Source: an uncultured Planctomycetaceae bacterium (GTDB lineage Bacteria > Planctomycetota > Planctomycetia > Planctomycetales > Planctomycetaceae). From it: DNA of 64,000 nt. Below the pieces are notes generated by a model that saw only the letters and a list, made by a program, of their open reading frames with translations, ran no database searches and was not told the origin of the DNA. Shown here piece after piece: positions 8,794-56,067 of the stretch. Each line of letters starts with the position of its first letter. The stretch's first letter is position 1. Made by a program: the position numbers and the translations under genes. The stretch covers positions 224,001 to 288,000 of the forward strand of contig CAWFGE010000023.1 in the NCBI GenBank assembly GCA_963815195.1. The letters are read 5' to 3'.

Positions 8794-9534
8794 ATGACGA
8801 GTCGTTTTCGATCGCCCTCCCAGTATTTGTCGGCCGCGGAATTTTCGGAGAACCCTCAGAATCTCGCCCGGCGGATGTTCCGACAAGCCTGTCGGTTAAA
8901 CTTTGAACAGGCGGGATTCGCGCTCGCCCAACTCGGCACCGACGGGGACTCCCGCCGGCTCCGGCAGTGGATGTTGGACATCTTGGACAGTTTGACGGAA
9001 TGCTCCCGGGAGCAATCGGGGCGAGAATTGCTCGCCCTGTCGATGAGCCGCTTCAACCAGCAGGCCACGACCAAACCGCACCGCGACGGCGGACCGGCCG
9101 AATCGCTGCTGCTTTTGGGTTATGAACCCACCCCGATCGACAGCCGACTTTCGATCGCGGACTATTCCCGCTGCGCATTCGATCTGGGTTTGACGCCGAC
9201 CGAGTTTCTGGATCGGCATAACCCGATGTTTCCCGCCGCGGGCGATTTGCTCAAGGAATACACAATTCCCGTGAGCGAGTTCGATCCGCGGCAGTATCAA
9301 ATCCTGCTGATCAACAACAGTTCCGCCGACTTCGATCCGCCCGACCCGCGCTGGCAAGGCGTGCTGCATCAAGCCACGATCCCGCACCCGCGGGAGGACG
9401 CGGTACGCGCTGTGAACTCCGTCCAACTGACCCCGGCGGGTTCGTCCGGTCTCGTTCCTATGACGGATGCCGAACGAGAACAGTTTCTGACCGACGACGC
9501 TTTGGGCCGGCAATACGGCCGGCAATCCGCGTGA
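8794..9534 (+). CDS. Hypothetical protein, possible 2OG-Fe(II) oxygenase-like fold
   Basis: 246 aa ORF with host-like codon usage; HxD (PHRD) and distal His (VLHQA). Confidence 0.6.
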   Translation: MTSRFRSPSQYLSAAEFSENPQNLARRMFRQACRLNFEQAGFALAQLGTDGDSRRLRQWMLDILDSLTECSREQSGRELLALSMSRFNQQATTKPHRDGGPAESLLLLGYEPTPIDSRLSIADYSRCAFDLGLTPTEFLDRHNPMFPAAGDLLKEYTIPVSEFDPRQYQILLINNSSADFDPPDPRWQGVLHQATIPHPREDAVRAVNSVQLTPAGSSGLVPMTDAEREQFLTDDALGRQYGRQSA

Positions 9535-9549
9535 AGAACCGATTCGGTT

Positions 9550-9846
9550 TCAAGGGACATCCGTTGAGTCTGTCAAAGCCGGTTCCTGGAGACTCCGCGC
9601 GACGCGAAAGCCAATATCTGCCACATCCTGCTCCAGGTCAAAACCACGAAACGCGGATCGGCAGTGATAACTCCCCCGAAACGATCCCCCGCGAACCACA
9701 CATAGGTTAGATGCTTTTTCGCACACCGGATCCTCGATGGGCGATCTCAGATAAAATCCGAGATCATGCCGGTCGTCATACCATTCCGAAACGTTTCCAT
9801 GCATATCGTAGAGACCAAAAGCGTTCGGCGGATAGGAACCGACGGG
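9550..9846 (-). pseudogene. C-terminal fragment of formylglycine-generating enzyme (FGE/SUMF1) domain protein
   Basis: [22 protein letters not shown]...VRGGSF...CRSAFR...IGFRV; 5' part replaced by integrase DNA. Confidence 0.85.
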
Positions 9847-10060
9847 CTCAAGAAAATCATCAAACGCGCCGGACTCAAAGTTTGGCCGAAGATTTGGCAG
9901 AACCTCAGGTCAACCCGGCAAACGGAATTCGAGAGAAGACTTCCCGGCCCACGTTGTCTGTGCTTGGATGGGGAATCGCGAACCCGTCGCCAAACCGCAT
10001 TACCTCCAAGTCACCGACCAGCACTTTGAAAAAGCTGTGTTTAACGCGCTGCAAAACCCG
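9847..10060 (+). pseudogene. C-terminal remnant of tyrosine recombinase/integrase
   Basis: [24 protein letters not shown] then (frameshift) [12 protein letters not shown]...[13 protein letters not shown]; ends near a tRNA 3' end. Confidence 0.8.
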
Positions 10061-10172
10061 GTGCAGACATTGCACGCTCGGCAGAACTCGCCAAAGGTGA
10101 ACAACGCGAATTCGCCAAGTGCCTCAAGGCGAGCGATGCCGATATTTGGCGAACATCGACAGTGTGCAAAAG

Positions 10173-10246
10173 TAGGGCCGGAGGGACTCGAACCCCCAAC
10201 CAACAAATTATGAGTTTGCTGCTCTAACCGATTGAGCTACGGCCCC
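10173..10246 (-). tRNA. tRNA with CAT anticodon (Ile2 or elongator Met; not initiator); CCA not encoded
   Basis: GGGGCCG-TAGCTCAATCGGTTAGAGC-A-GCAAA CTCATAA TTTGT-...GGGGG TTCGAGT CCCTC-CGGCCCT-A folds into a cloverleaf. Confidence 0.95.
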
Positions 10247-10260
10247 AATCTTTTTGGTAA

Positions 10261-10294
10261 CGGCTTGCGTCACATGGATTTGTGATGCAAGCCG
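10261..10294. other. 14-bp stem-loop between tRNA and RT gene (terminator or msd-like hairpin)
   Basis: CGGCTTGCGTCACA-TGGATT-TGTGATGCAAGCCG with one G-T pair. Confidence 0.7.
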
Positions 10295-10473
10295 GTTTTG
10301 TCTGTGTCTGTCCCGGGTGCGTGTTTAATTCCTATTTGCAGCCTGTGGAACCTAGCTCTCCAAATCGGCCCGAGGTCCGCGGGCAGGAAATGGGTTAACT
10401 CTATCGGCGGATTGGGGCCGGGTCCAGTCCGCGCGCGGCGGCCACTGGCAACTTGTTGTCACTGCTTCCCACG

Positions 10474-11782
10474 TTATCGCGACGCCGCTTGCGACAGGCC
10501 GGCAAGTTGTTCGAGCAGGCTCTCGCCAAGTTCTGGCTCGCTCATCGCGATATACGCCGCATAGCCGGCGAGGGTTTGCGGCGTTTCGCCGTCGCGGAGC
10601 GGTTTGCCCTTTGTCAGATTATGGATCGCCGCGCGGATTTGCCGTTTGAGCGTTCGGGAAACGCGGGGCGGGCGGTCGCCGTTGGTGACGAGGCCCGTCA
10701 CCTGCTGCCGGCTGCCTTGGCGGTTGATGCGGGTTTTTTCGGGATGAATCTGAAACCCCTCATCGGCCACCGTCCGCTTGACGAGGCCCATCAGCCGGCC
10801 CAAACTCGGCGGCCCCTTATGCTCCGCCGGCAGGCTGAACGTCAAATCGTCCGCATACCGCGTGTACCGCCAACCGTGCTTTTTCGCGAGCCCCGACAGC
10901 CTGCGGTCCATCCGCAAGCAGAGCGTGTTCGTCAAGCCGGGGCTCGTCGGCGCGCCTTGCGGCAAACACCTCGGGCCCAAGGCGATAAAGTAAGTCTTGC
11001 CGTTGTGCTCGACGATCTCGCGGGGCGACTCGGTGCACAGGAGCGCGAGCAGCGTGGCGATCTGCTCGCGGTAGCCGGCCTTGCGGAACACGCCCTTCAC
11101 CCGCGGCAGCGTGACCGTGGGGAAGAAATTCTGGATGTCCATCTTCAAGAGGATCTGCGAATCGGTGTGCATCTTCGCGTTGGACAAAATCGACCGGCCC
11201 GGCAGGAAACCGTGGGCCGCCCCGTGGACGATCAGCTTTTCCACGATGTTCCGCAGAATCCAGCGTTGGGCGGCTTTGAGTTTCGGCAGCGGCGCCCAGA
11301 TCGCCCGCTCGCTGCCGTCGCGCTTGGGGATCGTAAACCGCCGATAGTGGATCAAAGTCGCCGCTTCGCGGTGATAGGCCAGCCAGCGAAGTTCCGCCAC
11401 GGAAAGATCCAGACTCTCGGCGAGCTCTTTCGGCGAATCCAGCGGCGGGCAGCTCGTTCTCGGCCGCGCGTTCCTCGGCGTGCTCCAGGTCCCACTTGTC
11501 CCAATCCAGGCCATCGTTCCAGAACACGTGCTCGCCCAGATGCACGATATAGTTGGCCCGGTACGCCTGCCAGGCTTCCGCCTTCAGCTTTTTCTTCTCC
11601 GCCGCCTCGCCCTTCAGTTGTTTTTTGTATGCCGCGAGTTCGCGTTTGGACATGCGGCCGGTTTCCCGGCGTTCGACGAGAAACCCGCGTTCGCGAAGCT
11701 GCTGCTCGATGTAAGCCTGCACGCTCCCCGCCTGCTCAATCGCCCGCCAAACCGCCGCCGCGTCCGACCGCCTTGCTGCCAT
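10474..11782 (-). CDS. Retron-type reverse transcriptase, Mx162-like, ~435 aa; one frameshift near 11450
   Basis: IPKRDG, AAHGF..GRSILSNA..H, D..NFFP, LPQGAPTSP, YTRYADDLTFS, QVTGL (retron VTG); N-terminal extension (AIEQAG..QL..RG...HLG..VFW) resembles the myxobacterial Mx162 RT as recalled. Confidence 0.92.
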
Positions 11783-11983
11783 GTCGTGTGGTCCTAAAGC
11801 CTTTATGTTTTGAAAAATCGAATCCGATGAGACAAGGTGTGTCACGATACGTCAGATCACAAGTGGACGCATCATTATTTTTTAGAAATCTGTTTCGGAA
11901 CATAAGCCCTATTTAACAAAATAGTTACCAAAAGTGCCAATCGTCGTCTGTCCAAAAAATCGCTCTGCAAGAAAATTTAGTCG

Positions 11984-12011
11984 TTGACATCCCTCCATAG
12001 CCGCATATAAA
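11984..12011 (+). promoter_or_regulatory. Sigma70-like promoter pointing away from the RT
   Basis: TTGACA-16 nt-TATAAA in an AT-rich intergenic region. Confidence 0.5.
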
Positions 12012-12139
12012 CGGGAAAATCACCTCAATCGGGTTTTCACTTCTTACCCGTTCCACTCAAAACGCCGTTGGATTCCGATCACTTCCCCATTTCGGAAAGG
12101 GCTGCACGATGTTGTTAAGGGATTGGCTCGATCCGCACT

Positions 12140-12228
12140 GGTGCCACTGGCAACTTGTTGCCAGTGTTTGCTTGATATTCGATCAATCACGCGTCAAAAG
12201 CACTGGCAGATAAGCCACCAGTGCCACC
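12140..12228. repeat. REP-like doublet, family C; partial copy at 10441-10465
   Basis: GTGCCACTGGCAACTTGTTGCCAGTG ... CACTGGCAGATAAGCCACCAGTGCCACC; GCCACTGGCAACTTGTTG also lies just past the RT stop. Confidence 0.7.
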
Positions 12229-12285
12229 ATTGCCACCCCGGCGCCGGCTTTACTTGCCTATTGAGATGTGTTTGTGCCAGTTTGA

Positions 12286-12690
12286 TCAATTGGCTGGCCG
12301 GATAATCTTGTGGTTTGCATTCAATTTCGGAACGCGTTGGCAAGAGGCCAATCCTTGAAACTGAATCGATTTGGACTCATGCCATTCCTTCAGCCAATCT
12401 TTGAGATCGTGCTCCCAAACCATTGGAAACCGTAACGCCATCGACCACAACGCGTTGTAATCAACTGTTCGTTTTGTGATGATTTCATTCCAAACGGCTT
12501 GACGGGCCTTATCGAGGTATCGTTCTCTCAACTGCACGTAATGAGACGAGGGTTCACCTTCCTCATCGAAGAACAGTTCACCCTGTCCCGTTTTTTTAAC
12601 CCGACGATTCTGTTGTGATTTCGCCCTGGCCGATTCCATATCTTTCATGGCCTTTTTCTCGGCCTTTTTGAATTCCTCAATCCCTTTCAA
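12286..12690 (-). pseudogene. 5'-truncated gene; resembles the C-terminus of three-Cys-motif partner (TcmP-like) proteins
   Basis: Starts abruptly at KGIEEFKKAEKKAM..RA..QQ.RR; lower GC; family assignment from memory only. Confidence 0.5.
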
Positions 12691-13645
12691 ATGCCCTCAA
12701 CTCCGACACGCTTTATCTTCTCGGCACCAACGTTGATAATGGATTTTATGAAGCGATGGTCAAGGTGGAAAACTCCTTGGGGGCCTCTGTGGAATCCTGC
12801 TTCCAAATCGATGTCGGCAACACGCCGCCGACGATTACGGTCGATGGAACGAGCGAGTCGATGGCCGGGGACGAGTATTCCATCGACATCTCCACGTCCG
12901 ACCTCGGGCCGGACACCGTCAGCTCCTTGAGCATCGACTGGGGCGATGGGACGGTTGACACCGCGGCAGCGGCAGGCGGGACTTTCACCCATGCTTATGA
13001 CACCGCCGATGGATACACCGTAACTGTCACCGCAACGGACGAGGACGGCAGCTATGACGCCGATCCGCATTACGTCATCGTTCACGGCACGGATCCCGTA
13101 ATCTTCTATGCCTTCGCAACGCTCATTGATTCGTCGACCGCCGAGGTTTCTGTTGAGGTGGACGATTATACCCAGACCTCCTTGGCACTCGATTGGGATC
13201 TCGACGCCGACGGGGTCTTTGACGACGCCACCGGCGACGCCGTGACAATCACCGCTGGCCAAGGGGTGTTTCCGGGAACCAACGGCGAGCCATTCCAGGC
13301 GAAATTAAGGGCCACGAACGGACTTGGCGGCGCGGCAAGTCAAGTTTTTGCATTCCAGCAGGGGGGCCAATTAAAGCCTGAACTTCAAGACATATTGACT
13401 TCTCTCACCAAAGTTGAGAATCGGTTCCAAATAACAGGAGCCAACCCGAAGGGTATTCCAACAACACTTAAATTTCCACCGAATTCAGATACGGTAGTAG
13501 TTACGGTAGTAGTTACGAATGCTCAATTGAAGTCATTGTTTAACAACATGATGGTGCTAGTAACTATGCACAACGGAGCATTTCTTGATGCCGGTTATTT
13601 AACTCAACAACCACCTACTCCAGTTGCTTTGATGGAGTATTTCAT

Positions 13646-15424
13646 CCCGGATTATTCACCAAAAAAGCTGAAAAAAGAAGGAACCATCGCGTGACCCCCT
13701 GCGTTTAAGTGTTATATGCAATCCCAACACCATACGGAGGAATCACGCGATGGGTGAAGTTCAGCCTAACATTTTCGAGCCCGATTTCAATCGTTCCATC
13801 AAGGTCAAGGCCGTCGATGGGCGGCTCACGTCACACTCCGGTGCCGTTCTGCTGCGGGACTTCGATCATCGGCTCGGACTCACCGAATCGCTCGCGGATC
13901 AACTGATCGATCCTCGCCAGCAAGACCGCGTCCGCTATCAAGGCGTCGAACTGCTGCGGGAAAGAATTTATGCCATGGCTCTGGGAGAGTCCGATCAGGA
14001 TGATCTCGACCGGCTCGCCCATGATCCCGCCATGAAGATGGCCGCCTGGGACCGGCCCGGCGAAGAAGTGCTCAACCAACGCCTGGCCAGCCAACCCACT
14101 CAGTCCCGGCTCATCGATTGGCTGGCCGACTGCAAGACGAATCTCGAGGCCGTGCGGAGCGCCTTGTTCGACTGGATCCATCGGCACATCAAAAGCACCG
14201 GCGACAGCGACCGCCGCGTCCGCTACGCCACCATCGACATCGACAGTTTCCCGATGCAGGTTTATGGCCAGCAGCCGGGGGCCCGCTATAACGGTTACTA
14301 TAAAGAGACGGTCTATCATCCGCTGGTCGCGAGTTTCTCGGTGGGCGGCGACTACGACGGCACGCGGGAAGGCCAGCGGCTGGGCAACGGCTTCATTCAT
14401 GCCATCCTGCGGCAAGGCAGCGTGCATACGGCCAATGGCATCCGGCGGTTTATTCGCAACGTGGTCGGCAAGGCCCGGCAACTGGCGTGGAGCTTCGACC
14501 TCCGGATCGATGCGGGTTTCATCGCCGGCCCGGTGTTGGATGAGTTGACCGACGAAAACATCCGTTTTTGCGGGAGAATCAAGAAGAACAACGTGCTGGA
14601 AGAGATGGCCGCGCCCTATCTGACACGTCCCGTAGGCCGGCCGCCCAAAGGGGGATATGAGGACGTGATCGAACTCGGAAAGTACCAAGCCGAGGGCTGG
14701 CGTCATCCGCAGCGGGTGATTCTGGTCATCGTCGACAAGCCGGAGGCGAAGACGGGCCAACTGGCTCTGTTTCCGCGTTACTTCTTCCTGATCACAAACT
14801 GGACCGAGGAGCAACGCTCGGCGGATGAGGTGTTGTCGCACTACCGCAAGCGCGGCACGTTCGAGGACCGGCTGGGCGAATTCAACGCGGTGATTGGCTG
14901 CCGTCTTTCGTCATCGGTGTTTGCGGAGAACGAAGTGACGTTGCTGTTGGGCCTGCTGGCGTTCAACCTGGCGTCGATGCTGCGGATCGAGTTCGAGGAC
15001 GAGTTGGGCGGTTGCTGGGACTTGCATCGTTTCCAGCAGTCGGTGCTGCGGACAGGAGCGCGGGTCGTGAAGCACTCCCGCCGCCTCGTGATTTACATTG
15101 AGGAAAGCGTGAGCGCGTTTTGGGCCGCGATGTCTTCCCGCATCCGATCGCTGCGTCTGGCCAACCTCTGGCCACGTCCGCGCGGAGCTCGCCCGCGGCC
15201 CTACACACCTCTCCCACGTCACGCCCATGAGCAACTGGTTCTTCGGGACTGAGCAGTTCGCCATCGTGGCATCCGCCTTTCTGTTTCTTTCCTTCACTCA
15301 CCCAACGATCGCCAGGCCCCAGGGGGGAAAGGGGGCGGTCCGCCCATCCTCCGCTCCCCAACCACCCGGTGCACTTTCCGCCACGGAAATACTCACCACG
15401 CACGGACCTGATGAATAATCCGGG
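13646..15424 (+). mobile_element. IS1380-family insertion sequence (1779 bp)
   Basis: Terminal IRs CCCGGATTATTCA / TGAATAATCCGGG; 5-bp TSD TTCAT at 13641-13645 and 15425-15429. Confidence 0.93.
13750..15252 (+). CDS. IS1380-family DDE transposase
   Basis: LTSHSGAVLL, LASQPTQSR, IDIDS, YNGYY..YHPL, RIDAGF, YRKRGTFE. Confidence 0.93.
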   Translation: MGEVQPNIFEPDFNRSIKVKAVDGRLTSHSGAVLLRDFDHRLGLTESLADQLIDPRQQDRVRYQGVELLRERIYAMALGESDQDDLDRLAHDPAMKMAAWDRPGEEVLNQRLASQPTQSRLIDWLADCKTNLEAVRSALFDWIHRHIKSTGDSDRRVRYATIDIDSFPMQVYGQQPGARYNGYYKETVYHPLVASFSVGGDYDGTREGQRLGNGFIHAILRQGSVHTANGIRRFIRNVVGKARQLAWSFDLRIDAGFIAGPVLDELTDENIRFCGRIKKNNVLEEMAAPYLTRPVGRPPKGGYEDVIELGKYQAEGWRHPQRVILVIVDKPEAKTGQLALFPRYFFLITNWTEEQRSADEVLSHYRKRGTFEDRLGEFNAVIGCRLSSSVFAENEVTLLLGLLAFNLASMLRIEFEDELGGCWDLHRFQQSVLRTGARVVKHSRRLVIYIEESVSAFWAAMSSRIRSLRLANLWPRPRGARPRPYTPLPRHAHEQLVLRD

Positions 15425-15752
15425 TTCATTCAATATCAGACAGAATGGGTAACAGAAGTTAAGAACGGTCAGAGACAAGACGTGGGGAGGACACCGTGGG
15501 CACCCGACGGCCCCGACCTTGCTGCGAACTCGACCCATCCTTTTGGATATATAAATCAGGAACTTATCCTCGGTGGTGCGTTAATGGATGACACTCCAGG
15601 TACGAGCTTAGTGTTAAAACGCGGCATCCATTTCAAAGGTGTCACCGGGCAGTGAAAACCGGCCACTTGTGGGCAGTTCAAAACCGGCCATTTGAGAGGA
15701 AAGGGATTCGTCATTCTGTTCTCCTGGGAGTTTTCTCAGAGGAGAACAAGCG

Positions 15753-17365
15753 ATGTCGAATCAGCTCCCGATGGACACGGTTCAAGCCATTCATGCCTTA
15801 CACGCCCAAGACTGGTCTCAGCGCAAGATTGCCCGCGAATTGGGCATTCACCGTTCGACGGTGGCGGCCCATCTCGCTTCAAAACCGGCCAAAGTGCCCA
15901 CCGGGTCCGAGGATTCAAAACCGGCCAAAGTGCCCACCGGGTCCGAGGCCCAACTGCCCACCGGGTCGGAGGGCCAACCGCCCGTCGAATTCGAGGATCT
16001 TCCTGAGGCCCTTGGAGAAGATTCTGAGAAGGAAGAGGCGGAACCTTCGCGGAGTCGCTGCGAGCCTTGGCGGGATGTGATTTTGGAGAAACTCGGCCAG
16101 GGTCTTTCCGCGCAGCGGATTTTCCAAGACCTGTCGAATGACCATGATTATGTGCATGGCTACGACAGCGTGAAACGCTTCGTGCGGCATTTGCGATCTT
16201 CGAAAGAGTTGCCGTTTCGGCGATTGGAATGCCAACCCGGCGCGGAAGCTCAAGTGGACTTTGGCCAAGCAGCGGCCGTCGTGGATGAGAACGGCCGTCG
16301 CCGCCGACCTCACGTGTTGCGCGTGGTGCTGAGCCACAGCCGCAAGGGTTACACGGAAGCGATCGAGAAACAGACCACCGATGGCTTCATCCGTTGTTTG
16401 GAGAGCGCGTTCTGGCATTTTGGGGGCGTGCCCAAGACGCTAATCATCGATAACTTGCGAGCCGCGGTGAGCAAGGCCGATTGGTTCGACCCGGAACTCA
16501 ATCCCAAGATTCAATCGTTCGCCGAGCATTACGGCACGGTGTTTTTGCCCACGCGGGTTCGCACGCCGAGGCACAAGGGCAAGGTGGAACGCGGCGTGGA
16601 CTACGCCCAAGAAAACGCACTCAAAGGGCGGACGTTTCAAAGCCTGCGCGAACAGAACGAACATCTTTGGAATTGGGAATCCACGGTGGCCGATACGCGG
16701 ATTCATGGAACGACCAGAGAGCAAGTGGGCCAGGCGTTTCGCGAGCGAGAACAGTCGGCGCTGTTGCCGTTGCCGCTCGAACGCTTTCCGTTTTTCCATG
16801 AAGCCGAACGGAGCGTGCATCGCGATGGGCACATCTCCGTGGAGAAGGCGTATTACTCCGTGCCGCCGGAATTCTTGGAAGGAAAGTTTGGGTTCGCTGG
16901 GATGCGCGGCTGGTGCGAATCTTCAATACCAAGCTGGAACAGATCGCCTTGCATCCCCGTCAAGAACCGGGAAAGTTCAGCACGCAGAACACCCATTTGC
17001 ACGCACAAAAAATCTCGGGTGTGGAACGCGGAGCCACTTGGTGGTTGGCGAAAGTCAGCGAAATCGGCCCGGAAACCAGGGATTGGGCCGCGGCCATGCT
17101 GGGAGCACGGGGCATTGAAGGCGTGCGGGTGTTGATGGGTCTGAAGCAACTCGCCGACAAGCATTCGCGTGAGGACATCGAACGCGCGTGTTGCACGGCC
17201 CACTCGTATGGAGCCTACCGTCTTCGCACCGTTCGCAAGCTGATCGATCGCAACGCCCCCGTGCAAGGACAGTTCGAGTTTTTGGACGAACACCCGGTCA
17301 TTCGGCCGTTGGTGAGTTATTCCGAGTTTGTGCAATCCGCTTTACGAAAGGAACAGAATCGATGA
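15753..17365 (+). CDS. istA: IS21 transposase IstA (frameshift near 16880)
   Basis: N-terminal HTH (SQRKIARELGIHRSTV), PGAEAQVDFG, FGGVP, DNLR, KGKVE, YSVP. Confidence 0.92.
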
Positions 17366-18337
17366 ATGGGAACTTAATGCAGATGCTGAAGCAACTCCGC
17401 TTGAGCGGTCTGATCGAATCGTTGGAAGTCAGGCTTCAAGAGGCCGTCGGCAACGGATTGTCGCATGCCGAATTTGGAGTTGGTGTTGAGCGATGAGTTG
17501 GCGATCCGTCGTCAACGGGCGATCGATCGGCGATTGAAGCAAGCCCAGTTCCGCGAGATGAAAACTCTCGATCAACTCGATTTTTCCTTCAACCCCACTC
17601 TCCCCAAACGCCGAATTATGGACCTGGCCACGGGACAGTTTATTCGCGAAGCGGCCGACATTTTACTGCTCGGTCCGCCGGGCACGGGAAAAAGCCACTG
17701 CTGCCAGGCAGTGGGTCGCAGTGCAATCAAAGCCGGCTTCACGGTGCTCTACCGTTCGATCTTCGATGTGGTCCGCGACTTCCTGCACGAGGCCGCGTTC
17801 GAGGGTGATGACAAAACGCTGATGCGCTACCTCAAGCCCGACCTGTTGATCATTGACGACATGGGCATGAAGCAACTCCCGAAGAGAAGCGGGGAATGCT
17901 TGTTCGAGATCATCCTTCGCCGGCACGAAGTCCGCAGCACGATGATGACCTCGAATCGACCGTTACAAGATTGGGGCAAGCTCATCGGCGATGTGCCCGC
18001 CGCGACCGCGATCTTGGATCGCTTCTTGGAGCATGCCGAGATCATCCAGATCACCGGCCAAAGCTACCGCCTTCGCAACCGAACGAAAGAGAAACTGGAC
18101 CAAGAGGACAAGGCTCAACAGGACGCCAAAACCGGCCAAGACGAGAAGCCCAGACGGGACGCCAAAACCGGCCAAAAGGAGACGGGGAATCAAAGCCCCA
18201 AAACCGGCCAAAGTGCCCACCGGGTCGAGCCCGAAGAATCCTCTGAGAAAAACTGCCCAGAAAATAAGCAAGCCAAACGGCAAAGGATCAGAAAAACCCA
18301 CCTGAGACTTGAGCCACCGAGGTCAAGCATCCGATAG
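17362..18337 (+). CDS. istB: IS21 helper ATPase IstB (frameshift near 17470)
   Basis: LKQLRLSG, Walker A GPPGTGKS, Walker B LLIIDD, TSNRP..DWG, AILDR, GQSYR. Confidence 0.92.
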
Positions 18338-18768
18338 CAAAACTGCCACCGACAGAAAGATTGTGCGACCAAGTCGCGTTACTAATCATTCACACCCCTG
18401 TCGGTTTTGAAGTGCCCACCCCTGGCCGGTTTTGAAGTGCCCGGTGACACAAAGGGGACCGAGTTGCCAACGGCATTAAGATCACTCTCATCAAAACCCC
18501 AAAACAAATCTACGATGGCAGCGCGTCTTACCAGGCTTTTGTTGCCAATCAACGAGAAGCTGGCCAAGACTTTCAAACATACATCGCACAAGCACGACGG
18601 CCGGGGTTCGGGGCGGCCTTTAGTATTCATCCTTATAGATACGTTGAATGGGGTTTCAAGCTGACTGGGACAGCGAACGGCTGGGACGTTACACTTACCG
18701 TTACACTTACCCAACCATCTGAACATGTGGGCAACGATCAGAATGTTTGGAACTTGTGAGGTAGTTCA

Positions 18769-19503
18769 ATGGTAGGTCTTTCAACATTAATTACTGCATT
18801 AGGTATTTGTTTTGGAACCATCTACTACACATGCCTGATTACGATGAATACAGACCGTGCGGTAACGCGGTGTGGGGGTTTAGCGATCGGTGGATCAATA
18901 TTACCGGACTGGATTTCAAGCCGTCTCGGTGCCATTAATGTTGTAAGGGAGATTCACTGTGCAAATGCCGACGCTATCCAGTTTCCGGAATCTAAAGCTA
19001 TTCTCCATGATCGTTGGATGTTTGGTGGGTCCGCCAGGATTTCCACGGAATTAGTCCAAGTCCTAGCGAAAAACGACCATCTGGATTACGTGCATCTGGA
19101 TTTCACGGAATTCAATGACTCACACCTGCAAATGCTGAGTGCTTCCGACAACATCACGCTGCTGGGCATCTGCGGGACGAAGTGCACGGATGACGGGATG
19201 AAGCATTTGCGGAAATATCGGCATTTGGAGAGCGTCTATCTCTGCGAATTGCCGATACGCGATGCCGGGGCGGCGGAGATTGCGAAGTGCAAGACGCTGA
19301 AATACGTCAACATCTACGAAACCTCGATCGGCCCCAAGGGGTTGGAGAAGCTGTTCGAGCTCCCCAAGTTGGAAACCCTCGTGGTCAGCGACAACGCCCC
19401 CTTCAAGGAGGAACTGTCCTGGTTGAAAAAGAAGCGGCCGAAAGTCAAGGTGGTGGAATTTAAAACCCAATATGACGCCGAAGGCAACAAGCGAGTGGAT
19501 TAG
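18769..19503 (+). CDS. Leucine-rich-repeat protein with N-terminal hydrophobic anchor (copy 1; candidate immunity protein)
   Basis: LxxLxLxxTxxTDxGxxxL-type repeats; starts 9 nt after the exoprotein stop with a GAGGT SD. Confidence 0.82.
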   Translation: MVGLSTLITALGICFGTIYYTCLITMNTDRAVTRCGGLAIGGSILPDWISSRLGAINVVREIHCANADAIQFPESKAILHDRWMFGGSARISTELVQVLAKNDHLDYVHLDFTEFNDSHLQMLSASDNITLLGICGTKCTDDGMKHLRKYRHLESVYLCELPIRDAGAAEIAKCKTLKYVNIYETSIGPKGLEKLFELPKLETLVVSDNAPFKEELSWLKKKRPKVKVVEFKTQYDAEGNKRVD

Positions 19504-19735
19504 GACTCGGACAGGCTTCATCGATCGGAGTGAGCCTGCCGCGAAGCTCACCCCGCGGTGGCGTCCAGGTAGCCTTTGGCGGCGAGGTTTTCCAGGCGGC
19601 TCAAGTACTCGGTTCTGGCTTCATCCGTCGAGTTGAAGCGGAGGTTTTGGGAACGCAACTCGTCCCCGGCCCGGCCCCAGCGGAGGCGGAGCTTGTGGCG
19701 GTCGAGGGTGATTTGAAAGACATCTTCGCCCGCGG
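19180..19735 (+). repeat. Direct repeat copy 1; near-identical to 20684-21239 (offset 1504 bp)
   Basis: Manual alignment shows about nine substitutions; covers LRR 3' half, intergenic hairpin and SWIM-gene 3' end. Confidence 0.95.
19548..19735 (-). pseudogene. Duplicated 3' fragment (WGR-like tail) of the SWIM gene
   Basis: AGEDVFQITLDRHKLRLRWGRAG...YLDATAG*; matches the end of 21052-22929 except for one residue. Confidence 0.92.
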
Positions 19736-20154
19736 CGGCCCAGAACCGAGCCGCCTGGGATGCCATCCTAAGAAATACGGCGGCCAGACGATTGGTGATG
19801 GGCTGGTAACTATGAGCGATGCGCTTGGGCAATATAAAACGCTTACAAAAGGTGTCGATTATTCGGAAACACGAGTGCCTGGAACAAACATAGTGCAATT
19901 CATGCTGATTAAGACTCCTCAGCAAATTTTTGCTGCCGACGATACCCACCAGTCTTACGCTAGTAATCAATTCGAGGTAAAACAGGACTTCCAGACCTAT
20001 TTGGTGAAACATATTGCCCCAGCGACGTTCATTCCGATCAAATACGTCGAATGGAGCTTTAAAGCCAGCGACAACGACGACTGGCTATAACATTACGATT
20101 CTTACGCAGCCTATGCAGCATAACGGCGCGGATAACAACGTTTGGAATCTATAA
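19736..20154 (+). pseudogene. Orphan diverged C-terminal cassette of the exoprotein (no start codon; frameshift near 20080)
   Basis: LIKTPQQIF..QDFQTY..YVEWSFK..LTQP..NVWNL* aligns with LIKTPKQIY..QDFQTY..YVEWGFK..LTQP..NVWNL* of 18456-18759. Confidence 0.88.
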
Positions 20155-20171
20155 TGCAGCGAGGTCGTGTC

Positions 20172-21007
20172 ATGACATCGAAAACATCCATTGCCACAAT
20201 CGGAATCTATTTAGGAGCGTTATTCTGTTTTACAATTCAGAATAACCAGGATATTGAGGATAAGGTTTACGAGTGCGGGGGCACCACGATTTCTGAACTT
20301 ATTATGCCCGCTCGGATCGTAAGCAGAGTTCCCGCTGCCCGTCTTTTGAACCCAATCAGGGAAATCCACTGTATAAATTCTGACGCAATCAGATTTCCGA
20401 TGCAGTCAAAGGTTGTTCTCCACGATCGTGATATAATTACGTTCCGCAAGGAAAAGAATGCGTATCTTTCCAAGGAACGACTCATAGCCTTGGAGGGGTT
20501 ATTCCACCAGCTTAATCCCTCACCCCAATGCGCAGCCCGTGTTTCCACGGAATTAATCAAAGTACTAGCGCGGAACGACCATCTGGATCATGTGCATGTG
20601 GATTTCACGGGTTCAACGACTCGCACCTGAAAACTCTGAGTGCGCTCCGATAATATCACCTGCAATTGGGCATCAGCGGGACAAAGTGCACGGATGACGG
20701 GATGAAGCATTTGCGGAAGTATCGGCATTTGGAGAGCGTCTATCTCTGCGAATTGCCGATACGCGATGCCGGGGCGGCGGAGATTGCGAAGTGCAAGACG
20801 CTGAAATACGTCAACATCTACGAAACCTCGATCGGCCCCAAGGGGTTGGAGAAGCTGTTCGAACTCCCCAAGTTGGAAACCCTCGTGGTCAGCGACAACG
20901 CCCCCTTCAAGGAGGCACTGTCCTGGTTGAAAAAGAAGCGGCCGAAAGTCAAGGTGGTGGAATTTAAAACCCAATATGACGCCGAAGGCAACAAGCGAGT
21001 GGATTAG
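20172..21007 (+). CDS. LRR protein copy 2 (frameshifted around 20610-20665)
   Basis: Paralog of 18769-19503 (REIHC.N.DAI.FP, STEL..VLA.NDHLD); diverged N-half with an insertion, near-identical C-half. Confidence 0.8.
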
Positions 21008-21239
21008 GACTCGGACAGGCTTCATCGATCGGAGTGAGCCTGCCGCGAAGCTCACCCCGCGGTGGCGTCCAGGTAGCCTTTGGCGGCGAGGGTTTCCAGG
21101 CGGCTCAAGTACTCGGTTCTGGCTTCATCCGTCGAGTTGAAGCGGAGGTTTTGGGAGCGGAGTTCGTCCCCGGCCCGGCCCCAGCGGAGGCGGAGTTTGT
21201 GGCGGTCGAGGGTGATTTGAAAGACATCTTCGCCCGCGG
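20684..21239 (+). repeat. Direct repeat copy 2
   Basis: See 19180-19735. Confidence 0.95.
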
Positions 21240-22929
21240 GATGCCGGCGGCTGAAGGTGCGGGTTTCGACGGTGATCGCCGCCCGCGACCGGCCGCCAGC
21301 GGCGCGTTCTTTTTCGCGGACCGCATAAGCCAGGCGGAGGGCGATCAGATGCGGGCAGGGGCCGTGCTGCAGGCCTTGCTTCCTAAAGAAGGTGCACGTG
21401 CACTCGGCTTTGCTCACGCCGCCGTCGTCGTTGACCAACAACTGCGGGCGGTACTCGCGCTTGTCCTCGGCCACGTTGACCTTGCCCGTCAGTTCCAAGC
21501 CGGTGCCGTAGATGCGGTTTTCGGTGGCGATGCTCACGGCGTTTTTGCGAGCGAGCAAATCGTGGGCGAGCCGTTCCCGCTGGTTGCGGTATTCCAGCCG
21601 ATCCAGATGCAGGGGGACATCGGTCAATGGCCGCAGGCGATAGACGTTCCGGGCCAGGTCGAACATCAACTGCCCCTGCTGGCAGCCCAATTGCAAGGCT
21701 TCGTGAAGCGCCTCGCCGGTGAGCTTGGTCGCTTTGGACAAGCCGGCTTCCTCATCGAACCAGACCTGGGAAAGGTGCTTGATGACCGCTTTGAGTTCCT
21801 TGGACTCCTGCGTTTTTCGCGGCAGAAGCAAATCGAAGCTCGCGGCCTCTGACCAGTTCGCGGATGTGAAGCCCGTCATGCCGAGCGTGATCGTCAGGTC
21901 CTCCGACCGGAGCACCCAAAAGCTCGGCAGGCCGCTGCCCAGGATGTGCACCTCGACCCCATCCACAAAAGGCAGCAGCCGCTGCAGAAGCATCAGCCGC
22001 CGCCGGCCCCAGATGCGAACGACTTTCGCCTGCCGGCCTTGATAGATCCCCGCCGACGCGGGCAGCACCTTTTCCCAAGGCTCCAACACGACGACGGGCT
22101 TTTCGCCGGGGATGAGTTCCACCCGCAGGCCGCGGCGTTTGCCTTTTTCGTCCGCGTGCATCCGCAAATGGCGGAGCACGTTGTACAGATCGAGCGGCGA
22201 CAGCGAGAACCGCTCCCGCGGCAAGGTCGCGGCGGACTGCACCTGCAGGAACCCGCGAATCCACGAGTCCGGCACGCGGATGTTTTTTTCGAGGACTTCG
22301 GGCTTCGATTCCGCGGGGGCTTCGGCCGCGTCCTGGGCGATCGTCAGGCTGGTCTCGCGGTAGCTCCGCATTTGCAACAGGCCGTCGAACAGCGTTTGGC
22401 TGAAGTCGATGTTCGTGGTGCCGAAGGCCGGCTCGTTTTTCTGTTCGGTGACCGATTCGAAAGCGTCGCGGGCGATGTTCAAGGAGGCATAGCTGCCTTC
22501 ATCCTTGCTGAAGACTTCCACCAGCACGGCGTCGGGATGCACGGTGATGACCGGATCGAGAATCAGCCACGCCAGCGGATCGTTGCGGGACAGCCATTCG
22601 AAGTAGGCCTGCTGGGCTTCCCACGCGGCGAGGTTCGAGGATTGCTGCTTCATCCGCCGATAGGCCTGGTACGCGGTGCGGTCTTTGGGGACGTAGCGGT
22701 AATCGCTGCCGACGATGGCGTAGATCGCCGCGAGCGCTTCGCGAAACTTGAGCGGATCGCGAATCCGCCCGTCAAAGCGCACCGGATCGCGATGCCGGTT
22801 CCCGAACAACCGGAGTTGCGATTTTCCCTCCGCCGAGACGACCCGGCTCTCGCCCTCGTACGCGAGCGAAACATCCGTCTGATCCGGCGCGGCCGGCTCA
22901 TCCGCTTCGGTGGATTTTTCATCGGTCAT
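21052..22929 (-). CDS. SWIM zinc-finger protein with C-terminal WGR-like domain (retron type XIII-associated family)
   Basis: CTC-x-C-x-H (ECTCTFFRKQGLQHGPCPHL), RLRWGRAG tail, LDPVITVHPD, EVFSKDE, SWIRGFLQVQSA, WGRRRL. Confidence 0.85.
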   Translation of the reverse strand: MTDEKSTEADEPAAPDQTDVSLAYEGESRVVSAEGKSQLRLFGNRHRDPVRFDGRIRDPLKFREALAAIYAIVGSDYRYVPKDRTAYQAYRRMKQQSSNLAAWEAQQAYFEWLSRNDPLAWLILDPVITVHPDAVLVEVFSKDEGSYASLNIARDAFESVTEQKNEPAFGTTNIDFSQTLFDGLLQMRSYRETSLTIAQDAAEAPAESKPEVLEKNIRVPDSWIRGFLQVQSAATLPRERFSLSPLDLYNVLRHLRMHADEKGKRRGLRVELIPGEKPVVVLEPWEKVLPASAGIYQGRQAKVVRIWGRRRLMLLQRLLPFVDGVEVHILGSGLPSFWVLRSEDLTITLGMTGFTSANWSEAASFDLLLPRKTQESKELKAVIKHLSQVWFDEEAGLSKATKLTGEALHEALQLGCQQGQLMFDLARNVYRLRPLTDVPLHLDRLEYRNQRERLAHDLLARKNAVSIATENRIYGTGLELTGKVNVAEDKREYRPQLLVNDDGGVSKAECTCTFFRKQGLQHGPCPHLIALRLAYAVREKERAAGGRSRAAITVETRTFSRRHPAGEDVFQITLDRHKLRLRWGRAGDELRSQNLRFNSTDEARTEYLSRLETLAAKGYLDATAG

Positions 22930-23028
22930 GCGTCGGTTCCTCATTCGTGTGCTGTTCAAATCGCTCCCAGTCTGAGCAATCCCAGAAGCCGGGTCAAGCG
23001 GTTGCCGTGATCGATTTCGAGGCGATGA

Positions 23029-23126
23029 CCGCTTACTTCGTGCGCGGCTCTCTTTGCAAAAAAGATGACCGCTTACTTCGTGCGCGGCTCTCTTCGCAAA
23101 AAAGAGCCGCGCACGAAGTAAGCGGT
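23029..23126. repeat. REP-like family B: two direct copies and one inverted copy
   Basis: CCGCTTACTTCGTGCGCGGCTCT x2, then AGAGCCGCGCACGAAGTAAGCGG. Confidence 0.85.
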
Positions 23127-23286
23127 CCTTTGCCGGAAAAGGTCGGGGCACCCATCGTGATGACGGTTCCCGATGGACTGGCTCTCTGGAGTTCGCCGTT
23201 GTACGCTGTCGGAATTGTTTGCACCGATTAAGGTCTCAGTCAAAGGCTCAACACCAAAGCTGCCTCACCCCTTGGAAAGATTGCCC

Positions 23287-24447
23287 ATGCCTGGCCCGCG
23301 ATTTGGTTGTTTTCCTCTTGGTTTGGTTCTCGTCCTGGGGAATGGAATCTTCTCCAGCCTCTCCGCGGCAGAGCGGGAATATACGGGGGACGTTCGCGAT
23401 GTGGTCACGATCGACACGCTCGATCCCGAAGGGCCTTACAACAAGATCTGGGAACCCTACATCGCCCAGTGGACGAGCCAGCATTATGTCGCGGCGTATG
23501 GCCTCCAGGTGCGCGGGAAAGGCGACATGGGCGACATCGTGTGCTCGATCACGCGAGACGCCGGCAAGACCTGGAGCCCGCGGATCATGGTGTTCGACCA
23601 CAACCAGCGCAACGGCACGGTGCAGTATGCTTATAACAATTCGATCCTGTTCCGGCCGCCGGGGCAGGATGTGATCTGGCTGTTCGTGATGCGGGCCCCC
23701 ATGCATTACCGCGACAGCGAAAACGCCGACCTCGTCGCGGCCTACACCGCCGACGGCGGCTATTCCTGGCATCCCGTCGAGTTGGCGATGGACTACCAGG
23801 GCTCGCTGGTCACGGTGGCGGGGATCGAAACCGTGGTTCGGGACGGGGTGCCGCATTATTTGTTGCCGGCCCATCGCAACTCCCGCCGGCACGATCCGCA
23901 CGGCGACCGCCGGCAGTTCGTTTTGGAGAGCACGAGCCTCCTGCATTGGAAACTCGCGGGCTATGTGCCTTATGAGGAGAGCCGGCCCGTCTTTCTGCAC
24001 GAAGGCGGCATTGCTCAAGGCGAGAAGCCGGGCGAACTGAAAATCGTCATGCGAACCGCCGACATGGAGCGCGAGCGGCCGCTCGATCCGCCGCTCGCGT
24101 ATTCGTCCGTGAGCCACGACGGCGGCAAAACCTGGTCCACCGCGAAGCCCGAGCCCGACCTGCCCAACTACCGCGCGAAAAGCTTTTATGGGAAAAGCCG
24201 AGATGGCGATTTCATCTATGTCTATAGCAATCAAACCGAGCGACGGGGCCTGTTTTACCAAACCCGCACTGCAAACGGCGACTGGTCGGAGGCCAAGACG
24301 TTCTACGAAGCCGGCAACCGCAACAGCTATCCCACGCTGATCGAAGACCGCCCCGGCCGCTGGCTTACTGTGTGGGACAGCTCCAACGAACCGGGCCAAC
24401 CCCGCACCGCCATCCGCTTCGGCCGCCTCATCACCGGCTCCAAGTGA
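23287..24447 (+). CDS. Secreted sialidase-like (BNR/Asp-box) beta-propeller
   Basis: Signal peptide; Asp-boxes TRDAGKTW, TADGGYSW, SHDGGKTW; SYPTL. Confidence 0.8.
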   Translation: MPGPRFGCFPLGLVLVLGNGIFSSLSAAEREYTGDVRDVVTIDTLDPEGPYNKIWEPYIAQWTSQHYVAAYGLQVRGKGDMGDIVCSITRDAGKTWSPRIMVFDHNQRNGTVQYAYNNSILFRPPGQDVIWLFVMRAPMHYRDSENADLVAAYTADGGYSWHPVELAMDYQGSLVTVAGIETVVRDGVPHYLLPAHRNSRRHDPHGDRRQFVLESTSLLHWKLAGYVPYEESRPVFLHEGGIAQGEKPGELKIVMRTADMERERPLDPPLAYSSVSHDGGKTWSTAKPEPDLPNYRAKSFYGKSRDGDFIYVYSNQTERRGLFYQTRTANGDWSEAKTFYEAGNRNSYPTLIEDRPGRWLTVWDSSNEPGQPRTAIRFGRLITGSK

Positions 24448-24491
24448 CCAAAAACCCCCAAATCAGGCGGGCATCATGGATGTGGTGGATC

Positions 24492-24531
24492 TTCACAGAA
24501 TCTTAACATTCCGTTCATTGAATGATTCACC
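24492..24531 (+). promoter_or_regulatory. Candidate PHO box
   Basis: TTCACA, TTAACA, TTCATT at exact 11-bp spacing (24492, 24503, 24514) and TTCACC at 24526, upstream of pstS. Confidence 0.6.
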
Positions 24532-49557: not shown

Positions 49558-50958
49558 ATGCACATGACGACATATCGAATAACGACGGCCGCGAACGTTC
49601 CGATGCGCAAAATCCGTCCGCGTTCCCTCGTGTCTTTGTGGTTCCTATTTCTGCCTTTCGCGGGATGCTTGGTCTTACCGAGTTTTGGCGACGCGGAAGA
49701 TGCCCCGGCGAAAACCATGCAAAAGAAGGAATGGGTCGCGGAGCAAATCGCGAGGTTGGATGCCGACACTTTGAAGGAGCGCTCGGCGGCGGAAAAAGAA
49801 CTGCTCGAAGCCGGCCCGGAGATCCTGCCGATGCTGCCGCCGCCGGAATTGCTCCCGAGCGCTTCGGTCAAACAGGCCGTGCGGCGGGTGCGGGTCCGGC
49901 TCGAAGAAGCCCAGGCGCGGGAGTCCGTCAAACCCGCCCGGATCACTTTGAAAGAAACCGCGCCGCTCGAAAACATTCTGAAAGCCGTTGCCGAACGGAC
50001 CGGCAATGCGATTGACGCCTCCGCGCTCCCCCCGGCGATGCGCGAACGCTCCGTGTCGCTCGATGTTTCCAATGAGCCATTTTGGGACGTGATGGAACAT
50101 CTCGCCAAAGACGCGGGCTTCGTGATCGATGGCTCCGCGAAAGGGAACATCAACCGCTCCGAACTGGTTTTAGAACCGGATTCGAAAACGGCCATTAAGC
50201 CCAGCGCCTCGACGAACGTGGGGGCGTTTCGCGTGGAGGTCGATCCGCTCAAGCTCCGCACGCGGTTCGGGAAAGACGATCAGCAATTGTTGCGGGTGCC
50301 GTTCCGGTTGTCCGCCGAGCCTCGGCTGCGGCCGCTGTTTTTGAAGCTCGCCGGCAAAGACTTTTCCGCCCGCACAAAAAAGGGCCGATCGCTCGATCCC
50401 TTCAATCCCGCCCAGAAGCTGGAACTGCCCTTGGGCGAAGGCGGCACCGAGGCGACATTCCACATGGACTACCAGGTGCAAAAGCCTTTCCAGGCGGACG
50501 CCGTCGAACTGACCGGCCAGGCGACCTTGACCGTGGCGGCGGATTCGGAGGACATCACTTTCAGCGATTTGGCGAAATCGACCGGAGCCGCCCGCCGGCG
50601 GGGAGGCGTGACGGTGACGCTCAACGAGGTCGAGTTTGAGCCCGACAAGAAGCACGCGGATCGGCAATCGGCCGTCGTCCGCGTCACGGTGCATTACGAC
50701 ACCGGCGGCCCCGCGTTTGAATCGCATCGCACGTGGATCTTCCATAACCGCGTGTTTTTGGAAGATGCCCAAGGACGGCGGATCGAACGCGGCCAGCAAT
50801 ACCGCACCGACCTCCAGACCGACGGCGGCGTGATGGTGGAATACAACTTCGACAACCTCCCCGGGGGCAAGGACGATTACCGCTTCACCTACGTCGCCCC
50901 CACACTGATCATCGACGTGCCGATCCGCTTCGAGTTCAAATCGCTGTCCGTTCCGTAG
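49558..50958 (+). CDS. Exported hypothetical protein (start may be 49603)
   Basis: Long ORF with host codon usage and signal-like segment. Confidence 0.7.
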   Translation: MHMTTYRITTAANVPMRKIRPRSLVSLWFLFLPFAGCLVLPSFGDAEDAPAKTMQKKEWVAEQIARLDADTLKERSAAEKELLEAGPEILPMLPPPELLPSASVKQAVRRVRVRLEEAQARESVKPARITLKETAPLENILKAVAERTGNAIDASALPPAMRERSVSLDVSNEPFWDVMEHLAKDAGFVIDGSAKGNINRSELVLEPDSKTAIKPSASTNVGAFRVEVDPLKLRTRFGKDDQQLLRVPFRLSAEPRLRPLFLKLAGKDFSARTKKGRSLDPFNPAQKLELPLGEGGTEATFHMDYQVQKPFQADAVELTGQATLTVAADSEDITFSDLAKSTGAARRRGGVTVTLNEVEFEPDKKHADRQSAVVRVTVHYDTGGPAFESHRTWIFHNRVFLEDAQGRRIERGQQYRTDLQTDGGVMVEYNFDNLPGGKDDYRFTYVAPTLIIDVPIRFEFKSLSVP

Positions 50959-51031
50959 CGGCGGCTTCCAGCCGCCGAGGTCGAACCACGGCCGCAAGAT
51001 GCCGCCGCGACTTGTCGAGAATCCGCGCCGG

Positions 51032-51866
51032 TCAGGGGGCTCGATCCTGAAGCGCGTGCCGGACCGAGCTGGCGATTTCCAGGACTTCCTGCGTGGTCGC
51101 CTCCCGGCGGAGCGAAAGCAGGCTGCGGTGCGTGGCTTTTACTTTGGAGGACAGCCATTCCTCGGCGGATTGCGTGGCCACCAGCCGAGCCCCGTGTTCC
51201 GAGGCGAGGGAATCGAGCAGCGTCTGAAACAGCCGAATGTAAAGGTATTCGCGGATCGTCACCGCTGCGAGATGGCTTTCGCTGACATAAGGCGAAGGGA
51301 TCAGCCGGGACTTTTTGCGCGGGCTCGATGGGCAGGACGGAGGTGACGACCGGCGTAAATTCGCCGACGCCCGCGAACCGGGCGGAGATGAACTCCAATC
51401 GATCGAACCGGCCGTCGAGATAGTCCTCCAGTAAATCCTGCGCGAGTTCCAACAGCAGTTCGGTCAGCCCGGCGATGCTGCTCGGGGCCCGGTATTGCCG
51501 GGAGATCGTCAAACCCGCTTGGGTCAGTCCGTTGGCCGGGCGGTGCCCGACGCAATAGAGCCTTTGAGCCCCCGTTTGGCGAACATGCTGAATGGCCGAC
51601 TGCGTGAGGCGGGTGTTGTAGCCGTCGCAGAGTCCCAGGTCGCTGGCAATCAGCAGGGTTGCGGATGCTGACGTTGTGCTCACGGGCGGCGCGAAATTCA
51701 TCGCGGCGACGACTTCCTCGATGCCTTCGCGGTAGGCATGGGCGGCGGCCAGCCCTTCGCGGGACTTGCGAAAGTGATGGGCCGCCAGCGACTTCATCGC
51801 CGATACGGCTTCGGAGAGCGTCTCCAACGTATGCAGGCGGCGCTTCAAATCCTGGCCATGCTTCAT
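51032..51866 (-). CDS. atpG: N-ATPase gamma subunit (frameshift near 51310)
   Basis: VSAMK.LA, SDLGLCDGYN, SEHGARL, LRREATTQEVLEI. Confidence 0.9.
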
Positions 51867-51895
51867 TTCAAACTCCTCGATTCGCGCTCGGCTCG

Positions 51896-51974
51896 GGTGG
51901 CACGCCCTGAGGAACGAAGGGCGTGGTTCTTGCGTTCGCCACGCCCTTCGCTTCACTCAGGGGCGTGCCACCCA
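51896..51974. repeat. REP-like family A doublet between atpA and atpG
   Basis: GGGTGGCACGCCCTGAGGAACGAAGGGCGTGG...CCACGCCCTTCG...CGTGCCACCC. Confidence 0.85.
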
Positions 51975-51994
51975 AATTCTCTCCAGGTTTTATT

Positions 51995-53494: not shown

Positions 53495-53641
53495 AAGCGA
53501 GCGGCGAGCGAAGTGCAAAGAGCGGAGAGCCAGAAGTTGGTCCTCAAAAAACGCGTGGTGAAACAGAGAATAACCCCATCGATGCGGCGGAGGCAACTGC
53601 GAATCCCATTAAGAGACTCTCCCATAAGTGGCATTGATGTA

Positions 53642-53707
53642 AGCGGCACGGCGCTAGCCGCCGGTCGAGTATAGAGGACGCACGCCGGCGGCTAGCGCCA
53701 TGCCGCT
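53642..53707. repeat. Palindromic element between atpF and atpA
   Basis: AGCGGCACGGCGCTAGCCGCCGG ... CCGGCGGCTAGCGCCATGCCGCT. Confidence 0.8.
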
Positions 53708-53735
53708 CGTTTTTCAGGCTTATGTGGGAAAGACT

Positions 53736-54482: not shown

Positions 54483-54489
54483 GCGGTTC

Positions 54490-56063: not shown

Positions 56064-56067
<4 letters not shown>
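55771..56067 (-). CDS. AtpQ/AtpZ family protein
   Basis: LGGIGW.IV...GGA.LG.WLD. Confidence 0.85.

Follow-up and report, generated by a model that had tools for sequence, protein, structure and literature searches.

Scattered parts of a type XIII retron operon in a planctomycete genome, and candidate stand-alone msr-msd RNA genes in its relatives

The window analyzed here is a stretch of 64,000 nucleotides (nt) from an uncultured Planctomycetaceae bacterium (GenBank assembly GCA_963815195.1, contig CAWFGE010000023.1, positions 224,001 to 288,000). The genome that carries it is designated G000 and its contigs C4, C8, C12, C13, and C20; other genomes (G001, G031, G127, G060, etc.) and loci (L088, L068, etc.) are designated likewise. 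Our subject is a retron reverse transcriptase (RT) gene and a gene for a protein with SWIM and WGR domains, which are co-oriented on the minus strand with 9,269 bp between them (Table 1). The first-pass annotation of this DNA recognized both genes, assigned them to the type XIII (Mx162) group of retrons, and proposed that they belong to one system that is either dispersed or acting as a hotspot for conflict genes. Motifs, Pfam, and PADLOC agree with the recognition of both genes. Based on sequence comparisons, the interpretation that we favor is that they are probably the two closing genes of a type XIII operon with five parts, which lies in four pieces in this genome and is likely to work in trans.

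The best PADLOC profile for the RT is RT_XIII (E value of 2.8e-146, 486 bits; the next profile scores 316 bits), Pfam RVT_1 is matched, and the YADD, LPQG, and VTG motifs are all found. In the RT tree, which was built with IQ-TREE and does not include Mx162, the G000 RT falls within a clade that comprises 24 operon RTs and has 100/100 support, and both the PADLOC matches and this placement uphold the type XIII assignment. (Trees of the other proteins, including SWIM-WGR, were built with FastTree.) The original identification of the gene stands, while a frameshift near 11450, which puts the 110-residue N-terminal extension and the core in different frames, had been missed. Because frameshifts are common genome-wide and because a contig from sequencing run X1 is one base shorter over 11017-11732 (715 nt versus 716 window bases, with 0 substitutions and 1 gap), the RT frameshift is probably an assembly error. 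Judged by the proteins encoded in 400 kb of G031, a complete genome at the family level, frameshifts affect 19 of 116 conserved genes in G000 (about 16%), a rate of 0.15 per kb. The genes of the system have 3 frameshifts (1 in the RT and 2 in the giant HEAT gene described below) versus 1.9 expected, which fits the assembly background; the same rate calls for caution with any other finding in G000 that rests on broken genes. The two hairpins flanking the RT were considered as msr-msd and ruled out, since they are members of a genome-wide repeat with 45 exact 20-mer copies. A near-consensus sigma-70-like promoter, found by eye at 11985-12015 on the plus strand, faces the inserted block and is directed away from the RT; the promoter scan did not list it.

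The best PADLOC match of the SWIM-WGR protein is SWIM_XIII (E value of 2e-193, 642 bits). The Pfam SWIM and WGR domains are both matched, WGR having been scored on the duplicated 3' piece, and a WGR-like domain forms the C-terminus. The SWIM finger CxCx12CxH, expected of a Cluster-114 partner, is present as C510-C512-C525-H527. The strict acidic pattern Dx7[D]x4Ex30-32Dx37E is unmatched, the actual spacings being 7, 4, 36, and 38; across 110 sequences, the acidic residues D125-D133-E138-D175-E214 are conserved at 90% or more. A PDB sequence search with this protein gave no match. When its structure model (predicted local distance difference test [pLDDT] score of 84) was searched with Foldseek, the N-terminal region resembled PCNA (E value of about 1e-7, template modeling [TM] score of 0.56 to 0.68 over the PCNA chain), and a sliding-clamp fold is predicted for this region. 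The likeness to PCNA and other sliding clamps lies in the predicted fold; identity is 7 to 14%, the root mean square deviation is 6 to 9 Å, and ring formation is putative.

As first described, SWIM and RT are split by a truncated gene, exoprotein/leucine-rich repeat (LRR) cassettes, and two insertion sequences (IS). The truncated open reading frame (ORF) has no match in Pfam, PADLOC, or NCBIfam. The IS1380- and IS21-family elements make up 4,589 bp and both lie inside one PKD exoprotein gene; the ends of the IS1380-family element were located, and it has many copies in the genome. An exoprotein tail and an LRR gene form a cassette that is present as two alleles, in a duplicated stretch of 700 bp at 95% identity. 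Because the SWIM 3' end follows both cassette alleles, the LRR gene adjoined SWIM before the cassette was duplicated, just as had been proposed. Identity between the alleles climbs from about 40% (tail, protein) to 98% (LRR 3' half), a gradient that would fit one-sided homologous recombination between alleles of two strains. The exoprotein-tail/LRR layout recalls polymorphic toxin-immunity cassettes, and layout and gradient together fit such a cassette, with toxin activity putative for the exoprotein and an immunity-like role conceivable for the LRR gene. Neither exoprotein tail matched a toxin family in NCBIfam. Relatives of the LRR gene number 9 proteins, found without gene context, and none with context was confirmed among metagenome contigs.

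Table 1. Features at the SWIM-RT locus (window positions) and the msr-msd RNA on contig C4
Feature	Position	Strand	Evidence or remarks
REP-like (repetitive extragenic palindrome-like) hairpin after RT stop	10441..10467		Genome-wide repeat family
Type XIII retron RT with N-terminal extension	10474..11782	minus	PADLOC RT_XIII, reading frames, tree
REP-like hairpin upstream of RT	12140..12169		Same repeat family as 10441..10467
5'-truncated low-GC ORF, 134 aa	12286..12690	minus	GC 0.46
5'-truncated PKD-domain exoprotein, first piece	12691..13645	plus	PKD_4, E 4e-9
IS1380-family element within exoprotein gene	13646..15424	plus	DDE_Tnp_1_4; TTCAT target duplication
Exoprotein middle piece, between both IS	15430..15638	plus	
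IS21-family element, istA/istB	15639..18448	plus	rve + IstB_IS21; CAAAGG target duplication
Exoprotein variable C-terminal tail, allele 1	18455..18760	plus	41-46% identity to allele 2
LRR gene, allele 1	18769..19503	plus	5' half variable, low GC3; 3' half conserved
Duplicated SWIM-WGR 3' end, last 195 bp	19548..19742	minus	Joined to cassette 2 at CCCGCGG microhomology (7 bp)
Exoprotein tail, allele 2, fragment, frameshifted	19743..20151	plus	
LRR gene, allele 2, frameshifted	20142..21007	plus	
SWIM-WGR partner, 625 aa, intact	21052..22929	minus	PADLOC, Pfam, motif, structure model
REP-like repeats, second family, upstream of SWIM	23024..23127		Repeat scan
msr-msd RNA	C4:80972-81211	minus	Ahead of ARM gene; covariation, fold

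A synteny comparison of the kind that the first-pass annotation had called for shows how this interval looks in relatives. Among 26 orthologous loci, some of them from close kin or from the same genome, the RT comes directly after SWIM in 24 and the other 2 stop at contig edges; the gap is -4 to 195 nt where the start can be placed, and the LRR, exoprotein, and truncated ORF matched none of the 26 loci above 60 bits. Since two randomly placed genes would lie within 9.3 kb of each other and keep the ancestral order with a probability of about 0.0005, the proximity of SWIM and RT in the window is most likely residual linkage. The other half of the original proposal, that the interval is a hotspot collecting conflict genes, has in its favor the low-GC exoprotein/LRR cassettes with their two alleles, the two IS, and the tRNA and integrase-like remnant just beyond the RT. 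However, orthologous gaps are short and free of this cargo, the cargo itself is broken, and the other operon junctions are broken too without such cargo, and we regard a hotspot as very improbable; what stands of the proposal is one dispersed system. The tRNA (CAT anticodon, minus strand) and the remnant, which is frameshifted, resembles the C-terminus of a tyrosine integrase, and has no family match, occupy 9690-10246, which we take to be a possible old island boundary; it lies beyond the RT, on the side away from the inserted block. Elsewhere in the window, at 50892-57910, the arrangement of ATP synthase genes (beta first, b, gamma) resembles that of the alternative N-ATPase operon.

In intact loci, the conserved order is noncoding RNA (ncRNA), ARM/BRCT, giant WD40-HEAT, SWIM-WGR, and RT, where the ARM protein bears a BRCT domain and the giant protein has WD40 and HEAT repeats. 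At the thresholds used, 400 other genomes of the class contain the ARM gene in 53 cases and the SWIM-WGR gene in 52, and the two genes are 6.3 to 9 kb apart on one contig in 46 of the 52 genomes that have both. The remaining genomes comprise 5 that fit contig breaks, one (G637) that has the operon with a frameshifted SWIM gene, and one (G599) in which the operon is split. The G599 split (L098 and L099) is a true and independent one, with ncRNA and ARM on a different contig from giant HEAT, SWIM, and RT, and neither piece at a contig end. The other genomes of the family number 397, and among them one, G127, yielded a SWIM orthologue; its operon is whole. Metagenome contigs searched for close relatives of the SWIM locus yielded 2 distant matches, both of them intact operons.

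The msr-msd RNA, which the first-pass annotation missed, is on contig C4 and not near the RT. Most intact operons have no room for an msr-msd before the RT, and a conserved RNA element lies ahead of ARM, 11.4 to 13.2 kb from the RT. The G000 RNA is 240 nt long with a priming G at position 16 within TAGC; for Mx162, the available text of PMC6868368 gives a transcript of 241 nt from which 16 residues are removed. It consists of an end stem (a1/a2), in which the G of TAGC is bulged, a pair of msr hairpins, and an msd stem of considerable length, and its folding z score is -8.75. Among 7 sequences, the same ones from which the structure was derived, 41 of 73 pairs are changed on both sides, a value that 0 of 500 shuffles reach and that also beats all slid controls. 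The RNA model matches 47 of 51 operon-positive genomes versus 0 of 19 operon-negative genomes; in 3 of the 4 misses ARM is within 300 nt of the contig start, and L081 and L083 are unmatched despite more than 400 nt upstream of ARM. The model also matches, more weakly, the RNAs that immediately precede the RT in other type XIII systems. It has no match in the window, and within G000 its sole matches are the C4 RNA and the C13 system described below; Rfam gave no retron family match in window positions 9000-24500. The contiguous ncRNA-RT cassette of the textbook definition is thus lacking for the RT of the window.

As first noted, there is no ARM/HEAT gene among the window ORFs scanned, and the suggested search of the rest of the genome recovered both ARM/HEAT genes, on C4 and C8. 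G000 therefore keeps all five parts in four pieces: ncRNA and ARM at C4:77.5-81.2 kb (with the ARM gene intact at 77.5-80.8 kb), the giant HEAT gene with two frameshifts at C8:535.6-542.1 kb, and SWIM and RT as separate pieces in the window. All four G000 proteins cluster with G127, L088, and L068, they retain 95 to 99% of conserved columns (medians are 96 to 98%), and their root-to-tip lengths are under the median. At the level of sequence comparison, this establishes that the four scattered genes share common ancestry as one system. The dispersal looks recent, because the congener G001 has an empty site where G000 has the C4 block and three congeners (85 to 94% complete) gave no orthologous match to the system.

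Gene order is poorly conserved in G000 more generally. Co-oriented neighbor pairs are kept in G000 in 90 of 108 cases from G001 (18 broken) and in 28 of 55 from G031, and alignment of G000 with G001:C15:1-400000 gives 85 synteny blocks with a median of 2 kb at 83% identity. Congener gene order is broken about every 2 to 3 kb. A control genus also looked scattered, but it is more divergent and fragmented than the G000/G001 comparison. Shuffling driven by REP-like repeats was rejected as a cause; repeats are at 35 of 168 block ends, whereas 56 of 112 internal gaps have them, and the count for random sites is 107 of 1,761, so that breakpoints show no enrichment. We give almost no credence to the possibility that the scattering and the duplicated cassette are artifacts of long-read metagenome assembly. 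The indel rate is high, none of the aligned contigs crosses the whole stretch or bridges the tandem cassette, yet each piece sits among other genes on long contigs, the flanks of the C4 site match the congener precisely, both IS have target duplications, and run X1 has coverage in each of the 30 bins. For the tandem cassette by itself, a two-strain chimera is conceivable.

A second type XIII system in G000 is likewise split, with ARM and SWIM at C12:1097002-1100451 and RNA and RT at C13:1180378-1182220 (L009 and L010). It is split in three congeners also, and it is contiguous in G054 and G060, where there are two RNA copies. A third retron-like RT, at C20:330437-331867 (L011), is PADLOC RT_other/outgroup and has counterparts in most family genomes.

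If the scattered parts do not work, they would be young relics of a system that died when the operon broke and that awaits deletion. In favor of this are three frameshifts in two of the four genes, the recent dispersal and the three congeners without the system, the broken neighbors and IS in the SWIM-RT gap, and the G000 ARM protein, which is 4th lowest of 21 in conserved-column retention. Nevertheless, the frameshift count is within the assembly background and the X1 contig is one base short across the RT break; the RT terminal branch is short (0.14); the two SWIM 3' alleles differ at 5 codons, with 4 synonymous differences and 1 nonsynonymous; the RNA fold is intact; and SWIM-WGR proteins at 83% identity occur in other samples, where they are known as proteins without gene order. 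On balance we consider death of the system unlikely, although it is the most serious of the alternatives.

Function in trans is likely, as is suggested by relatives with up to 35 stand-alone genes for the template RNA per genome. In 12 operon-positive genomes of genus g38, there are 7 to 32 RNA matches each among the 32 candidates scored, and two g38 genomes without the operon have no RNA matches. Full model runs found 35 RNA loci in G494, 21 in G452, 13 in G060, and 13 in G530. At least 0.5 Mb separates 12 of the 13 G060 copies from any of the four G060 RT matches, and of 73 such RNA loci (L110 to L182), 4 have ARM adjoining and 0 have an RT within 1.5 kb. TAGC is kept in 30 of 30 G494 copies examined, and the mean identity of 20 arms compared is 28%. 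Of 106 rows, 86 have an msd arm that is a perfect 29- to 30-bp duplex, and the same is true of 76 of the 95 that are distinct. In multicopy genomes an internal inverted repeat (half-site of at least 4) is present in 46 of 47 distinct arms, compared with 22 or 31 of 47 in shuffles, and 0 of 300 shuffles reach 46; arms of less than 18 bp and duplicates were dropped from this test, and the kin in it are not independent. A comparison of the arms with the G000 genome gave matches of 16 to 20 nt, which is chance level, and nothing longer. Genus g117 has 1 to 6 RNA copies, and several f4 genomes have tandem pairs ahead of ARM. In G530 the RNA ahead of the operon (L122 on G530:C263; see also L121) is without the msd stem while the other copies are whole, which would force the use of remote copies.

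Copies working in trans need not serve phage defense, and the arms might be host decoys for DNA-binding proteins or the RNAs selfish repeats spread by the RT. The vertical inheritance of type XIII noted in the available text of PMC7736814, the Ne160 msr-msd repeats without a nearby RT described in that of PMC6868368, and the restriction of the RNA copies to operon-bearing genomes are all in line with this, and RT template switching could also make palindromic arms. On the other hand, the stand-alone copies hold msr and msd, covarying end stems, and promoter- and terminator-like flanks (by eye), the fixed arm length points to selection on the product, and some arms are common to several genomes. 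These features make a nondefense role rather improbable.

Our favored interpretation, trans function of a dispersed type XIII operon, implies the following course. Foreign exoprotein/LRR DNA would have come between SWIM and RT, and the inserted block would then have been enlarged by the two IS and by cassette duplication from strain to strain. The remote 240-nt RNA would serve as template for the RT, which would start at the G of TAGC and make multicopy single-stranded DNA (msDNA) with a 29-bp duplex arm. The SWIM-WGR protein, with its predicted clamp fold, and the HEAT scaffolds would keep this arm as bait; clamp, WGR, BRCT, and HEAT modules would be well matched to gripping a duplex whose length is fixed. 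When the arm is bound, methylated, or cut by a phage protein, a toxic activity might then be released, for which the D125/D133/E138/D175/E214 cluster of the SWIM protein is the best candidate. We propose this trigger by analogy with Dcm and Ec86. Operon linkage would be dispensable because the RNA of this subtype is already its own gene, distant from the RT. A broader and more tentative idea, which we consider possible although doubtful, is that retrons of this subtype draw on a template library that is unlinked and can expand. A single RT, together with a clamp/HEAT complex, would act in trans on stand-alone msr-msd genes, and each 29-bp palindromic duplex would bait a different phage DNA-binding or -modifying protein.

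Several observations weigh against this interpretation. The family to which this RNA belongs has a single copy in G000, the msd arm of that copy is a 29-bp duplex with one extra unpaired base, and 34 single or tandem arms show no clear palindrome enrichment, so that the argument for a bait repertoire comes from other genomes. If the dispersal is recent, intact sequences may mean only that there has been too little time for decay. Three operon breaks are more than expected at the congener rate (probability of about 0.005, compared with 0.12 at the family rate), and thus background shuffling explains them only loosely. The two giant-HEAT frameshifts are known from the assembly alone; the X1 gap lies somewhere within 11017-11732, and X1 may be the source sample. 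Finally, the Foldseek match of the SWIM protein is a clamp, not a nuclease, and a toxic domain in this protein is putative.

The window split is modest by itself, and the surprise is the remote and expanded RNA genes. If the library idea is true, these relatives have a repertoire of as many as 35 sensor genes that can be programmed, and the scattered, complete G000 system is natural proof that linkage is unneeded. Retron engineering could use the 29- to 30-bp arm, fixed in length and free in sequence, as a natural cargo slot, and the multicopy genomes are a panel for asking what each arm detects. If the RT uses remote RNA genes, tools based on gene neighborhood miss such systems. Retron ncRNAs are frequently immediately upstream, according to the available text of PMC10849725, and the survey in PMC13712802, which in its available part lists planctomycete type XIII RTs, covered 10 kb on either side of the RT; the RNA described here lies outside this radius, at 11 to 13 kb or on another contig. 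In the literature covered, from which subscription papers were mostly absent, we found no naturally scattered retron, no such RNA repertoire, and no mechanism or defense test for type XIII.

Type XIII (clade 10) contains Mx162, the first retron found; its members, in the available text of Mestre et al. 2020 (PMC7736814), are Retron-Mxa1/Mx162, Mxa2/Mx65, Sau1/Sa163, and Nex2/Ne144. A type XIII variant with two HEAT/ARM genes is already described there, and it shares with the G000 system the RT N-terminal extension and the SWIM finger CxCx12CxH; its SWIM acidic motif has a possible counterpart in G000 with other spacing, and two HEAT/ARM genes (PADLOC PDLC02921 and PDLC02919) and a ~240-nt msr-msd with TAGC are likewise found in G000. 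In contrast to the contiguous ncRNA-RT cassettes that the same text presents, the RNA here is 11 to 13 kb upstream or on another contig, WGR is fused to SWIM, and the G000 operon is in four pieces. Retron-Nex1 (Ne160) of Nannocystis exedens is similar in having repeated msr-msd that lack an RT in the vicinity, a distant RT being the proposed agent that serves or spreads them (PMC6868368, available text). However, those are duplicated repeats, whereas g38 genomes have 7 to 35 full-length genes, each with a different arm of fixed length, and G000 has a single copy. Ec86 (Eco1), for which the available text of bioRxiv 2023.08.16.553469 reports msDNA stem methylation as the trigger, is our model for a DNA stem that baits a phage DNA-modifying enzyme, although it is a retron of another type with a compact operon and a known nucleotide-depleting effector.

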